A stretch of 64,000 nucleotides of DNA from a virus. Where the stretch lies: the IMG/VR virus record IMGVR_UViG_3300002225_000002; one strand, 5' to 3'. The first letter of the stretch is position 1, and every line of letters begins with the position of its first letter. The notes under the pieces are model-generated. The model ran no database searches, had not been told where the DNA came from, and saw only the letters and a list, made by a program, of their open reading frames with translations. The position numbers and the translations under genes are program-made. Of the stretch, positions 7,029 through 48,847 are shown piece after piece.

Positions 7029-7263
7029 CAGTACCTCGGTTGAATTTACCCATCATCATATTCACGCTATCTTCACACGCTGATAAATACGCTAATGGTA
7101 TCGCTGACGCTAACAAGCAAGAACCAAGAATGGTTAGGCCCGTTAAACGACATGCAGTCTTACTACATGCCACGGTATCGTCGTATAATTCTTTATATCC
7201 ATTTTTATCTTTCATAAATTCCTCTATAATATAAACAGTTTCGCTATTGTACCACTCAAACAT
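7009..7263 (-). CDS. Hypothetical small membrane protein (start may be downstream MKDKNG)
   Basis: One hydrophobic segment; fills the gap in the operon. Confidence 0.45.
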   Translation of the reverse strand: MFEWYNSETVYIIEEFMKDKNGYKELYDDTVACSKTACRLTGLTILGSCLLASAIPLAYLSACEDSVNMMMGKFNRGTDDESAS

Positions 7264-8153
7264 ATTTCTGGATCACCAGAACCTGCGTGGTCAACTAAGC
7301 CTTCTTTGATTGCATATAAACATTCACATTCATGCGTAACATCTCTCGCAATCATGGACACGTTCTCATATAAGAACCTATATGCACTTACGTACTGGTC
7401 TGGGCTTATGCCTTTGCATACTAATGTTCTAGCATCACTGATTTGGCCTTTCTTGAACAAAGATATCATTTCTAAGAAAATTTCTTTCTCACTTCCGCTC
7501 TCATCGTCCGAGAATGGCAGTATTTTACCACCAACACAACTTAATTGCAACTTATTAATGCATTTACGTAAATCGGGGTATGTGTGCTTAACGTATTCGT
7601 TCAGGTTTTCTAAGTCTTCTTCACCAAAATGTATACCTTCCGTCAAAAGTACAGAAGCAGCTCTGGCTGTAAACTCAGTGACATCTAGCGCATCAATAGT
7701 GATAGGTGGGCACCTACTCACAATCGGCTCCATAAGCTTCCCTACGAAGTTACACGTTAATATGAACCTAGTTGTATCCGCGAAGTCTTGCATGACCCCA
7801 CGAAGTGCTGCTTGGCCATTATGGGTCACATAGTCTGCTTCGTCTAGAAGCACATACTTATAATCACCAAAAGGCATAGTTTCAGCAAACCCAACAACTT
7901 GATTCCTGATGTGATCGACACCATTATCAATCGACGCATTGATATATAAAATATCACACTCGTCAACTTCTAACTCTTTAAGGATAAGGAAAGCTAAAGT
8001 AGTTTTCCCTGTCCCTGCCGGTCCACAAAACGTTACGTGAGGAAGAACACCGTCTTCAATCCATTGTTTGACTCTAAGCTTGAGACCTTCATCCTTGAAG
8101 ACATAACCTTCTATGTCATCTGGTCTGTAATGTTCGCTCCAAATTTCTTTCAC
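7224..8153 (-). CDS. Clamp loader ATPase subunit (T4 gp44 / RFC small subunit-like)
   Basis: WSEHYRP, Walker A GPAGTGKTT, NASIDNG, Walker B LLDEAD, TRFILTCN, SRC motif. Confidence 0.92.
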   Translation of the reverse strand: MKEIWSEHYRPDDIEGYVFKDEGLKLRVKQWIEDGVLPHVTFCGPAGTGKTTLAFLILKELEVDECDILYINASIDNGVDHIRNQVVGFAETMPFGDYKYVLLDEADYVTHNGQAALRGVMQDFADTTRFILTCNFVGKLMEPIVSRCPPITIDALDVTEFTARAASVLLTEGIHFGEEDLENLNEYVKHTYPDLRKCINKLQLSCVGGKILPFSDDESGSEKEIFLEMISLFKKGQISDARTLVCKGISPDQYVSAYRFLYENVSMIARDVTHECECLYAIKEGLVDHAGSGDPEICLSGTIAKLFIL

Positions 8154-8155
8154 TT

Positions 8156-8506
8156 TTAAAACCTACGTAATTTTCCGTGTTCAGTCGAATTCATAACCAT
8201 GTCGTCTTCTGGCTCATCTTCACTCACCAATAGCACACTCTCTGGGTACTCAATCGCTCTAAGTTCATCGCCTTCTAAACCTCTGGCTTTGATCTCCCTT
8301 GTCCATCTACCGTGATCTACCAAAACCCAATCGCCTTCTTTAAGCAACTCGACTTCTGGACCAATATATTTCACTTTGGCCCATCTTGGTCTAACACCGT
8401 GTTCTTTACCGTCGTCGTTGGCAATTATAATTCTACCAACTTTCCTTTCTCCGCTCTTCATAGATTCTACTAGGACAGTAGAGCCTAATGGCTTAAATTC
8501 ACTCAT
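8156..8506 (-). CDS. Divergent GroES/Cpn10-like co-chaperonin
   Basis: KPLGSTVLV...GRIII...WAKVKYIGPEV...GDWVLV, a Cpn10 pattern; start moved to MSEFK. Confidence 0.7.
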   Translation of the reverse strand: MSEFKPLGSTVLVESMKSGERKVGRIIIANDDGKEHGVRPRWAKVKYIGPEVELLKEGDWVLVDHGRWTREIKARGLEGDELRAIEYPESVLLVSEDEPEDDMVMNSTEHGKLRRF

Positions 8507-8768
8507 CCTTGGCCTCTTGTAATAATTGTTCGGCATTTTCTACCATGTATTCAGTTATACCAATGAAACCTTTCTCTTCAGACTCATTGCCAAACCCACG
8601 GAATCTAACTCTTGCTGGGTAGGCACCTGTTACGGCACCATCTGCATCAACATCGACAACTATAGCCCAACCAAAGACATGTAGAAGTCTATTGGCGAAC
8701 CATAGCATTTTAGAATTTCTAAACTCGTCCCACGTGCTTCGAGTTACCATTTCTTTATCGTCACTCAT
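8499..8768 (-). CDS. Hypothetical protein, 89 aa
   Basis: SD-preceded ORF between the two GroES genes. Confidence 0.6.
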   Translation of the reverse strand: MSDDKEMVTRSTWDEFRNSKMLWFANRLLHVFGWAIVVDVDADGAVTGAYPARVRFRGFGNESEEKGFIGITEYMVENAEQLLQEAKDE

Positions 8769-8770
8769 GA

Positions 8771-9064
8771 CTATTCTTTATCGATGATGCATTGAACTTC
8801 TTCTTCTTTCATCAAGAGAAGCTTCTCACCATCAACGTTCATTAGATACCCAGCGTCTTTTTCAAACATCACAGTGTCACCTATTTGAACAGTTAGGGGT
8901 TTAATACCACCATCTTTCAATTTGATTCCTGCGCCTACTTGAACGACTTCGCCGAGTTTAGATTTTTCATTATTCTTAGGCAAAAAGATACCAGCAGACG
9001 TTTTTTCAAGTGTCGCTTCTGCTTTTACTAGAATCTTATCGTATAGGGGTCTTTTACTACTCAT
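8771..9064 (-). CDS. groES: Co-chaperonin GroES (canonical type)
   Basis: RPLYDKILV, mobile loop KTSAGIFLP, GEVVQVGAG, PLTVQIGDTVMF, DGEKLLLMKEEEV. Confidence 0.92.
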   Translation of the reverse strand: MSSKRPLYDKILVKAEATLEKTSAGIFLPKNNEKSKLGEVVQVGAGIKLKDGGIKPLTVQIGDTVMFEKDAGYLMNVDGEKLLLMKEEEVQCIIDKE

Positions 9065-9524: not shown

Positions 9525-10052
9525 CTATTCCTTAAAAAATTCTTTACAGTCTAAGTTGTACTTGATACTGTCAACCCTATGCACGCCCATTAAATACAAA
9601 GTATAAACGGATACACTAGAGCCACGTCCGACGCCCCACACTGTTCTTTCTTTTCTCATGGTATCTACGAAGTATTTCATGAACCTAAGCATATTAAGTA
9701 AATTAAATTTCTCAAATAGCTCCATCTCATGAGTAACTCTGTCAATTTCTTCTTGACCATCACATAAATTCATTATATGATGTTTGATATCAAGTATTTG
9801 GTACTCCCAAGGGATATTCCACTTATTGACTTGCTCAGCATGAAAGTCCTCAAAGGATGTTTCATTCTTCTCGTAGATATTAAGTCCAGTTTCACCTAAA
9901 ACCTGACTACAGTTCGTATTATACATTAATACGTCCTGTTCGTCAAGGAAAAAACAACCTGAAACATCTTTACCGTGTAGCATCAACTCAACCGCGTCGT
10001 TACTACTCAGTAAGTACCTTCCATATTCATCTAAGTTTTCGTTGGTTTCCAT
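9525..10052 (-). CDS. DNA polymerase III alpha (DnaE)-like fragment A, GRGS half of the palm
   Basis: RVTHEMELF...WGVGRGSSVSVYTLYLMGVHRVDSIKYNLDCKEFF parallels DnaE RL..EL.VI...VGPGRGSGAGSLVAYAL.IT.LDP...LLFERFL. Confidence 0.75.
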   Translation of the reverse strand: METNENLDEYGRYLLSSNDAVELMLHGKDVSGCFFLDEQDVLMYNTNCSQVLGETGLNIYEKNETSFEDFHAEQVNKWNIPWEYQILDIKHHIMNLCDGQEEIDRVTHEMELFEKFNLLNMLRFMKYFVDTMRKERTVWGVGRGSSVSVYTLYLMGVHRVDSIKYNLDCKEFFKE

Positions 10053-10762
10053 TTCAAGTCCGCCATAGCAATAGTAGATGTTAGTTTGTCAGGGACCTCT
10101 ATCTCACCTTCCTCGGCAGCACCGTAGGTAGTGTCATGGATTAATTTGGTGATTTGGTTTAGATCCGAAGCAGTCTCTAAGCTCTCAAGCAAGTCATCAT
10201 TAGACATACCTTCTACGTGCATTGGTTCCCACGTATCACAGTCATATCTTGCCCACCAAGGCTCTGTATATAGAGACTTACCTTCAAACACGCTATTGTC
10301 CATGTTAATCTGATAGCCAGCTTTATCACTGAAGTAAAAGGTAGATTCAAAATCTGTTGATTTAAGGGATACTTGAAGCACCTCTATGTTATCACCAGAC
10401 AATACCGATACTTTCTTGAATAAGGCTTCACTAAGTATGCTGTCAGTTGGTTCTTGGGGAGTAGACACAAATACATTGTCGAAGTCACCAGTAAAAAATG
10501 CTTCGAGTGTAGGTACGTCTGTAGATCCACATGCAAAGATATCCATCATGAAGTTTTGCAACCACCACTTTACGCGTTGATAGGATACTGTTATATCCCT
10601 CATTTGGGCTTCTTTGTCTTCTTCGGAGATGCCTTCTTGTGCCTTACCGGCGAGTTTTATGACTAGTTCCCAATTAACTGGGTACATGTGTCTGTCGAAC
10701 GACCTGATGCCGCTGAAATTGTGTTCAATCGTGTTATACACGTGAATATTTTCGTCTATCAT
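10031..10762 (-). CDS. Hypothetical protein (start moved to MIDEN after GAGGA)
   Basis: Long ORF overlapping the start of fragment A. Confidence 0.6.
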   Translation of the reverse strand: MIDENIHVYNTIEHNFSGIRSFDRHMYPVNWELVIKLAGKAQEGISEEDKEAQMRDITVSYQRVKWWLQNFMMDIFACGSTDVPTLEAFFTGDFDNVFVSTPQEPTDSILSEALFKKVSVLSGDNIEVLQVSLKSTDFESTFYFSDKAGYQINMDNSVFEGKSLYTEPWWARYDCDTWEPMHVEGMSNDDLLESLETASDLNQITKLIHDTTYGAAEEGEIEVPDKLTSTIAMADLKWKPTKT

Positions 10763-10769
10763 AGATTCC

Positions 10770-11084
10770 TCAATCATCAACGCCTTTGATATGACCAAGA
10801 GTAGCCACAACGTTGGGATTTGGTTTTTTCTTCTTGGATTTTTTCTTTCTGCCATAGCGACCAGCACTCTGCTTTTCGCGTTCTTTATTGGCTTCTTCTT
10901 GTTTCATTTGTTGACGATATTCAGCTTCTTCGCCTAGTACGCCAATCAATGATTCAAGACTATCCACCATTCCTTGGAATTGCGTGCCTCGGTAATTCAT
11001 TAGCATCTGGTTACTCTTCAGTAACTTCGCCATGAGTTCCTCATCACTTAAATCTTTAGGATCTATTAGATCATACATATACAT
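10770..11084 (-). CDS. Hypothetical protein, 104 aa, coiled-coil with basic tail
   Basis: SD AAGGA; KKKSKKKK tail. Confidence 0.55.
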   Translation of the reverse strand: MYMYDLIDPKDLSDEELMAKLLKSNQMLMNYRGTQFQGMVDSLESLIGVLGEEAEYRQQMKQEEANKEREKQSAGRYGRKKKSKKKKPNPNVVATLGHIKGVDD

Positions 11085-47378: not shown

Positions 47379-47575
47379 TATCTCATATTAAATATCTAGC
47401 TAATGACTCCGCTTTCATATATTATGAAGATTTGGAACACAGGTCATTAAGTGAAATTCGTGAAGGCGTACCGAAGGACATCTATGTTCTTGGTATAGTA
47501 GAAACGTACGTAACTGTCAACCCAGATACCTATGAACCAACACGGTACTACATGATCAATATATCTTCTCAGTAA
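47375..47575 (+). CDS. Hypothetical protein, 66 aa
   Basis: GTGA overlap with the upstream gene. Confidence 0.4.
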   Translation: MISHIKYLANDSAFIYYEDLEHRSLSEIREGVPKDIYVLGIVETYVTVNPDTYEPTRYYMINISSQ

Positions 47576-48140
47576 TAAGATTCATTTTTACTACTAATGA
47601 CATGGCGTAAGCGTAACTATGCGCACGTTTGAAGTGATAACCGCCATCAGCAGGCTTATCCCAAATCTCTTTATCAATATCAATTCTAGATCTACCAACT
47701 AGGTGTCTCTTTGCTGGTCGTATAATAGCCAGTGCCACAGCTAGATCATCCACATTACGTGGGCGTATACTATTAACAATATCAAAGTGACCAGTAAGGT
47801 GAGGTAATTGATCCACGAATTCTTCATGTTCCATTAGGTCCCACTGTACCATGCACTCTTCACAAAGGGCATCAAGATGAGCTTCATCTTCAACCTCTTC
47901 ATATATCGAATTATTAAGGACATCGATCTTCTGATACCCTAACTCTTCAGCTATCTTGTACTCGAACGTAGCCATCCCTGTAATAGGGTTAGCAGGTATA
48001 TCTTGAACATAGATACCCACGTTATGTACTTGTTCTTTATCATCTTTGGTACGTATCATAGCACGAACATGACGGACGCTCTTCAGCGCCTCATCACGAC
48101 TTGCCACATCAATATCGATATCACCTTTAAAAATACTCAT
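47556..48140 (-). CDS. DNA polymerase III alpha (DnaE)-like fragment B with the catalytic aspartates
   Basis: GDIDID, HNVGIYV, GYQKIDVLN, LAVALAIIRPA, YHFKRAHSYAYA parallel DnaE PDxDxD, HxxGVVI, KxDxLG, LA..ALYRPG, YGFNKSHA.AYA. Confidence 0.8.
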   Translation of the reverse strand: MSIFKGDIDIDVASRDEALKSVRHVRAMIRTKDDKEQVHNVGIYVQDIPANPITGMATFEYKIAEELGYQKIDVLNNSIYEEVEDEAHLDALCEECMVQWDLMEHEEFVDQLPHLTGHFDIVNSIRPRNVDDLAVALAIIRPAKRHLVGRSRIDIDKEIWDKPADGGYHFKRAHSYAYAMSLVVKMNLITEKIY

Positions 48141-48847
48141 AGTCCTGCCGCGCTTATAATGTCTCTTGCATATTTCACATCATCAACTTTCTTATGAAAC
48201 ACAAAGTTCCATAAATTTACGTCCATGATATTAGCTAACATCTTAACCTGTTCTTGGTTAAAGCTGCTCAGTAGCTTAGATGAGTTATCAGATATGTAGA
48301 TTATCCATGGGGATATTCTACCGCTCTTAATGAGGTACACAGCCTCTACAGGATGGACGTACTCAAAGAAGTTCGTAAATTCCGTATTGTTTTCCTGTGC
48401 CCATTTATCCATTTCGATTATGGATCTTTCTAGTGCTCTTTTCACCGGCTCTTTACGAATGTATTCACCTAAGAATTTATCGTAAATGGATGGCTTATCC
48501 CAGTCCTTCATTTTGATTCCGTTAGTAATAACGTAGTCTATGAATTGATCTGGAACTAACGGATTCAAATCTACCATATATCTGGCGAATTTAACGAATG
48601 CGTTGTAGTGGGAGCTGTCTATGAATTCATACACGCTTTTTGGTTCGCTCTTACGTGATGTAAGTTCATAGAACCTTTGAAATACCCTGTAACCTAACAT
48701 AGATCCTGGTGCATCTTTATCTGCAAATCGACGTTTCTTGACACACATATGCGCTGCTAGAGTTCTCTCAGAGCTAAATCCTTTCTTACAGAATTTACAT
48801 ATGTTATCTCGTGAACGCACTATTGACGTCTTTGGTTTCGAAGCCAT
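48137..48847 (-). CDS. Hypothetical protein with N-terminal C2H2-like Zn finger
   Basis: CKFCKKGFSSERTLAAHMC. Confidence 0.6.
   Translation of the reverse strand: MASKPKTSIVRSRDNICKFCKKGFSSERTLAAHMCVKKRRFADKDAPGSMLGYRVFQRFYELTSRKSEPKSVYEFIDSSHYNAFVKFARYMVDLNPLVPDQFIDYVITNGIKMKDWDKPSIYDKFLGEYIRKEPVKRALERSIIEMDKWAQENNTEFTNFFEYVHPVEAVYLIKSGRISPWIIYISDNSSKLLSSFNQEQVKMLANIMDVNLWNFVFHKKVDDVKYARDIISAAGL

Follow-up and report, generated by a model that had tools for sequence, protein, structure and literature searches.

The minus strand at 47556–48140 of the 64,000-nucleotide stretch analyzed here (the window) carries an open reading frame of 194 amino acids, which we call fragment B. The stretch belongs to the 347-kb record of an uncultured giant phage. 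The frame is open from start to stop, and its start codon overlaps the stop of the gene upstream within an ATGA. This upstream neighbor (48137..48847, minus strand, 236 aa) matches phrog_11058 (E 9.5e-60), a family whose label carries no function, and serves here as context only. Residues 16–38 of its protein form a weak C2H2 zinc-finger motif, with Pfam zf-C2H2 matches below the cut-off, and a search of the ESM Atlas with this zinc-finger-like protein returned only virus-only hypothetical clusters. The arrangement recurs elsewhere: in 69 of the 74 loci with enough upstream DNA, fragment B is preceded on its own strand by a homolog of the neighbor, and in 79 of 80 loci it is followed downstream by a convergent gene (phrog_11637). 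Genes for a primase and a DnaB-type helicase are also found near fragment B. Around fragment B, no site resembling an intrinsic terminator was found, and promoter-like sites there were no commoner than in shuffled sequences.

The protein comprises the second half of a polymerase palm, with three metal-binding aspartates, and a reduced fingers region. Motif positions were taken relative to the E. coli K-12 dnaE gene in RefSeq, in which GRGS begins at residue 361, DFDVD at 401, HAGG at 511, KFD at 553, FRPG at 638, YQEQ at 686, RRAMGKK at 709, FNKSH at 756, and QADMF at 920. The motifs of fragment B, all encoded on the minus strand, are collinear with this series. DIDID (D7-I-D9-I-D11, residues 7–11; 48108..48122) corresponds to E. 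coli D401, D403, and D405, and HNVG (residues 39–42; 48015..48026) corresponds to H511-A-G-G, where the palm restarts past the thumb. KID (K71-I-D73, residues 71–73; 47922..47930) matches K553-F-D555, such that D73 is the third catalytic aspartate. In the fingers, IRPA (I140-R141-P142-A143; 47712..47723) is the counterpart of F638-R639-P640-G641, and FKRAHSYAYA (residues 170–179; 47604..47633) is the counterpart of FNKSHSAAYA at 756–765. Because the order of the motifs is the same as in DnaE, we equate H39 with H511, R141-P142 with R639-P640, and F170…H174 with F756…H760. An earlier note on this DNA, made from the letters alone, had listed DIDID, KID, HNVG, IRPA, and FKRAHSYAYA as kept, and every one of them is present in the protein sequence. 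It had also placed the end of the protein 10 residues past AYA; the correct figure is 15 residues.

A Pfam search with fragment B gave no match at E ≤ 0.1. Among the PHROGs, the protein falls within phrog_11778 (“DNA polymerase”; E 5.9e-60), with a match that extends over residues 5–192 and profile positions 6–194 of 197, and it is also matched weakly by the full-length Pol III alpha family, phrog_405 (E 2.8e-5). A profile built from 81 fragment B homologs and compared with PDB sequences found only Pol III alpha chains, in four collinear pieces, and hhalign against a small DnaE alignment placed residues 57–143 on E. coli 539–641 (E 1.4e-5).

The AlphaFold (AF2) model of fragment B has a pLDDT of 94.6. 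The 11 best Foldseek matches to this model are all C-family polymerases, as are the 13 best matches from VIA-align (Z 6.4–9.6), in which the first unrelated entry appears at Z 5.1. Between 184 and 192 of the 194 residues superpose on C-family polymerases. Residues 1–194 could be aligned with E. coli DnaE 397–780, Taq Pol III alpha 458–837, M. tuberculosis DnaE1 415–807, and PolC 967–1295, each with Z 9.0–9.6, and every invariant position of fragment B (see below) sits on a DnaE motif. The likeness to Pol III alpha is not due to chance, and these comparisons establish both the homology and the boundaries of the domain.

In this superposition, E. coli residues 397–780 are compressed to half their length. 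There are 28 residues from D11 to H39, compared with 106 between D405 and H511 in E. coli. The difference of 78 residues between the DxD and HAGG strands equals the length of the DnaE thumb, which we take to be residues 433–510, and on that assumption the thumb is absent from fragment B. Similarly, RP and F.K.H are separated by 29 residues rather than 117, and the finger stretch containing YQEQ and RRAMGKK is deleted; R709, R710, K714, and K715 of RRAMGKK are invariant in four aligned full-length DnaE sequences. These figures bear out the earlier remark that the spacers between motifs are shorter. Since the end of fragment B is equivalent to E. coli residue 780, the clamp-binding, HhH, OB, and tau-binding parts of DnaE have no counterpart, and QADMF, at 920, lies beyond this end. 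A short, divergent clamp-binding peptide may nonetheless be present in the protein.

The length of the frame is sufficient to confirm the statement in the earlier note that fragment B lacks PHP, HhH, OB, and clamp-binding domains. The same note described a loss of processivity and proofreading domains, which is correct as far as it goes, but the losses are wider and include the thumb and the YQEQ/RRAMGKK finger segment. Across the whole 347-kb record, searches found no match to PHP (PF02811, which was matched in 14 of 14 control genomes), to DNA_pol3_finger (PF17657), or to HHH_6. Compared with a standard C-family polymerase, fragment B therefore has the catalytic triad but not a complete palm on the same chain, the palm being split at approximately E. 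coli residue 395, and it has no PHP, thumb, complete fingers, or clamp-binding, HhH, and OB parts.

Despite its small size, what remains of the enzyme is highly conserved. The 81 database homologs, of 37–72% identity, share the invariant residues D7, D9, D11, R15, H39, P49, G68, K71, D73, I140, R141, P142, K144, W160, K171, and H174; the length of the protein is likewise conserved, at about 185–200 aa. A separate sample of 80 IMG/VR loci was drawn independently from at least 574 matching stretches; one of the 80 is cut by a contig end, and D7, D9, D11, and D73 are present in all 79 loci whose sequence reaches that stretch. An alignment of homologs had been proposed in the earlier note as a check on the three catalytic aspartates, and in the 81 sequences all three are invariant, with no sign of frequent loss. 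The median dN/dS ratio is 0.11 and the highest is 0.18 (Nei-Gojobori, 65 pairs with usable dS), which establishes purifying selection. The view of that note that the gene is under selection and is not a pseudogene is upheld by the invariance of the aspartates and by the median ratio, and we reject decay to a pseudogene on these grounds. Judged by its pattern of substitution, fragment B is a working gene under strong purifying selection.

The same data bear on whether the protein could be non-catalytic, either as a captured dnaE in the course of decay or as a decoy that binds parts of the host replisome. Such a role might be imagined for so small a portion of a large enzyme with no Pfam match, but we regard it as extremely unlikely, given that finger residues as well as catalytic aspartates are invariant in the homologs and across the 79 further IMG/VR loci, and given the dN/dS of 0.11 and the conserved length. 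Moreover, it is exactly the beta-, epsilon-, and tau-binding regions of DnaE that are missing.

The first half of the palm is encoded elsewhere in the window. When the entire genome was searched with PF07733, a single place was identified, 9525–10052 on the minus strand, which is the same strand as fragment B and 37.5 kb downstream of it. The gene at this position, fragment A (175 aa), encodes an N-terminal unit with the NTP-binding half of the palm. PF07733 positions 22–94 match it at E 1.7e-7, above the cut-off, and phrog_11127 matches it at E 1.5e-44. In structure alignments, its AF2 model (pLDDT 88) places residues 78–175 on M. tuberculosis DnaE1 307–414 (Z 12.1) and residues 79–175 on E. 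coli DnaE 279–394 (Z 10.5–11.3). The C-terminal part of the protein reads ...GVGRGSS...KEFFKE and includes the GS motif, G140-V-G-R-G-S-S146 (9615..9635, minus strand), which is equivalent to the triphosphate-binding G361-R362-G363-S364 of E. coli. Within this motif, G140, V141, G142, R143, G144, and S145 are invariant in 109 homologs. The models of fragments A and B abut, since their ends meet at residues 394 and 397 of the E. coli enzyme and at residues 414 and 415 of the M. tuberculosis enzyme.

The remaining portion of fragment A, residues 1–75, is a small α/β region (pLDDT about 67–88) that aligned with no part of DnaE in a structure search. A 278-aa open reading frame at 10031–10867, which overlaps the start of fragment A, was considered as a third subunit and rejected, as it matches neither PHROG nor Pfam families. 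A clamp-loader subunit gene (7224–8153) is located near fragment A, and two GroES-like genes, 8771–9064(−) and 8156–8536(−), lie between the two; one of this pair matches phrog_3188 (co-chaperonin GroES, E 1.4e-20) and the other phrog_931 (head morphogenesis, E 3.2e-11).

The division of the palm determines how fragment B should be viewed by itself. As its sequence starts with the DxD strand, it lacks the first half of the palm; because the NTP-binding half with the GS motif is carried by fragment A, fragment B alone could not be an enzyme. Read literally, the earlier note had proposed that it is a self-sufficient, distributive mini-polymerase. The three catalytic aspartates and a start and stop of its own are compatible with that proposal, which we consider very unlikely in view of the position of the GS-motif half (E. 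coli 279–394) in fragment A, the co-occurrence of the two fragments, and the existence of a protein, P0256, in which they are fused.

Among cultured jumbo phages, fragment B homologs are found in 96 records and fragment A homologs in 92, with near-identical tallies by host genus, and several GenBank records label the two pieces DNA polymerase III alpha. A distance of 34–44 kb separates the two genes in RaK2, GAP32, and PA5oct (in which the fragment B gene is PQE65_gp264); in Atu_ph07 and Phosso the distance is about 180–225 kb. Both of the complete uncultured genomes tested carry fragment A, fragment B, and a family B polymerase. No A-like sequence was found within 3 kb of fragment B in the 80 IMG/VR loci, and the split is therefore the rule.

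P0256 was identified in a profile search of 1.84 billion proteins with the fragment B family, which gave 598 representative clusters at E ≤ 0.001. Among the 150 clusters listed, all are about 190 aa or shorter except this one, of 375 aa. Its residues 30–181 match fragment A (32% identity, E 5e-21), its residues 190–368 match fragment B (35% identity, E 3e-37), and a single PF07733 match spans the A–B junction. P0256 is a metagenomic singleton on a 2.4-kb ENA contig. From its sequence it appears to be a natural A–B fusion, and we treat it as supportive, not decisive, evidence that the two fragments belong together. Longer, fused relatives of fragment B were not found by a shared-word search, and a scan of viral contigs for the source of P0256 found no relative; a scan of metagenome contigs found only ordinary full-length DnaE genes, at the loci L006 and L007. 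At the first of these (L006:8366-12382(+), metagenome contig OKRZ01000398.1), an ordinary-looking DnaE occupies two consecutive open reading frames, the first of 382 aa with an N terminus that is PHP-like by eye and the second a 933-aa polymerase frame, reflecting either a real split or a sequencing frameshift.

A gene for a family B DNA polymerase is present in the phage genome as well. PF00136 matches it at either end of the linear 347-kb record, outside the window (G000:C1:346225-347193 and G000:C1:41-589), and hence the record seems to be cut within or beside this gene. A search of the genome for the T4-type clamp family PF02916 found no match. A stand-alone exonuclease of the DnaQ/RNase_T type lies at G000:C1:228798-229301(+), also outside the window, in a 196-aa open frame (E 3.5e-26). 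It is a conceivable in-trans proofreader for a polymerase that has no PHP or epsilon-binding part; T4-like phages carry such DnaQ-type exonucleases anyway.

Comparison with bacterial Pol III alpha (E. coli DnaE, Taq Pol III alpha, and M. tuberculosis DnaE1) and with PolC underlines both the kinship and the reduction. The Pol-beta-fold palm is shared, as are the equivalents of D401, D403, D555, K553, H511, and R639-P640 and of the F-N-K-S-H motif, and fragment B is collinear with residues 397–780 and superposes on them. In contrast to the bacterial enzymes, the palm of the phage form resides on two polypeptides, divided near residue 395, with nothing past 780 and without PHP, the thumb, the YQEQ/RRAMGKK segment, the beta- and tau-binding parts, HhH, or OB.

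The split DnaE of cyanobacteria is also a C-family polymerase encoded by two distant genes, but in that case each half bears part of a split intein, and splicing yields a single full-length DnaE. In contrast, no extra sequence was seen at the phage junction, where the end of fragment A and the start of fragment B fall at adjacent DnaE positions, and both phage pieces are minimal.

Another reduced, phage-borne C-family polymerase without PHP is encoded by a related uncultured phage (IMG/VR contig IMGVR_UViG_3300023115_000010). This 551-aa DnaE-like protein (L089:11427-13082(+)) follows directly after a DnaB helicase gene and matches the full PF07733 model (E 1.2e-42) and PF17657 (E 5.5e-16). 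Because it is a single chain that matches both of these models and keeps the RRA..KK motif, it represents a different, less reduced form. The same contig also encodes a fragment B homolog, at L089:4471-5037.

The closest known counterpart is the split minimal Pol III of group 2.2 jumbo phages (Iyer, Anantharaman, Krishnan, Burroughs, and Aravind, 2021, Viruses 13:63; PMC7824862). These authors recognized one piece as the NTP-binding subdomain and the other as the Mg2+- and template-binding subdomain, noted a family B polymerase alongside, suggested a role in one strand or in repair, and took the split mini-Pol III as a model of an ancestral Pol III. The arrangement seen here was thus already described from sequence in 2021 (PMC7824862), and fragment B is a further member. 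It has the same size as their C-terminal unit and constitutes the Mg2+- and template-binding half, while the gene for the N-terminal, NTP-binding unit is separate and distant in the same genome; a family B polymerase is present and other Pol III domains are absent. Nothing essential distinguishes the two; this copy is 36–49% identical to those of the cultured phages. Our literature search turned up no biochemical or genetic tests of members of the split mini-Pol III family, and neither an omics paper on PA5oct nor a 2026 review of jumbo phages mentions this polymerase.

Considered together, these data are best explained by a model in which fragment B is the C-terminal, metal-binding subunit of a split minimal Pol III alpha of the type found in RaK2, PA5oct, and Atu_ph07; we give this reading a probability of roughly 0.8. 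Fragment A would supply the helices bearing the G-R-G-S motif, which would hold the triphosphate of the incoming nucleotide. Fragment B would supply two strands, one bearing D7 and D9 and the other K71 and D73, together with a shortened fingers region that includes R141-P142, K171, and H174. The two most likely associate post-translationally and rebuild one Pol-beta-fold palm, with the join falling at the loop between F391-L392-N393 and D401 of DnaE. The enzyme so formed, lacking the PHP, thumb, clamp-binding, HhH, and OB parts, would then act beside the family B polymerase of the phage. That A and B bind one another and are catalytically active is inferred indirectly, from the abutting structural boundaries, the co-occurrence of the genes, and the one natural fusion; they would serve, as Iyer et al. 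proposed, in auxiliary DNA copying, such as repair, gap filling, or synthesis of one strand.

Templated synthesis by such a heterodimer is not assured, since the thumb and the YQEQ/RRAMGKK finger stretch are missing. Loss of these elements together with all of the accessory DNA-binding domains, in a phage already equipped with DnaB, a primase, a clamp loader, and a family B polymerase, raises the alternative that the pair is an active Pol-beta-fold nucleotidyltransferase but no longer a templated DNA polymerase, and might instead carry out untemplated nucleotide addition, make short primers, or produce a nucleotide signal. We consider this unlikely. The residues held invariant extend beyond the palm triad to the finger motifs of DnaE (I-R-P and K.xH), and it is the entire fragment B that superposes on the polymerase palm and fingers; furthermore, we know of no relative with such a nucleotidyltransferase activity.

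A more tentative extension of the split-polymerase reading, which we think fairly unlikely, is that an A/B heterodimer without thumb or RRAMGKK has a catalytic behavior unlike that of any characterized C-family polymerase. In that event, K144 and R145, just after R-P, may replace the RR of RRAMGKK, or the enzyme may perform gap filling, lesion bypass, or even untemplated transfer beside the family B replicase. P0256, at 375 aa, would then offer the smallest C-family polymerase core known, already joined in one chain.

In terms of principle, this copy adds nothing to what was known of the split mini-Pol III. What is new here are the residue-level boundaries of the two halves (fragment A equivalent to E. 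coli 279–394 and fragment B to 397–780), the exact deletions, the dN/dS values, and the fused form. The family is widespread, numbering some 600 representative clusters and occurring on hundreds of IMG/VR contigs, and it represents the smallest known version of the catalytic core of the bacterial replicase, with an active site that lies across two polypeptides.
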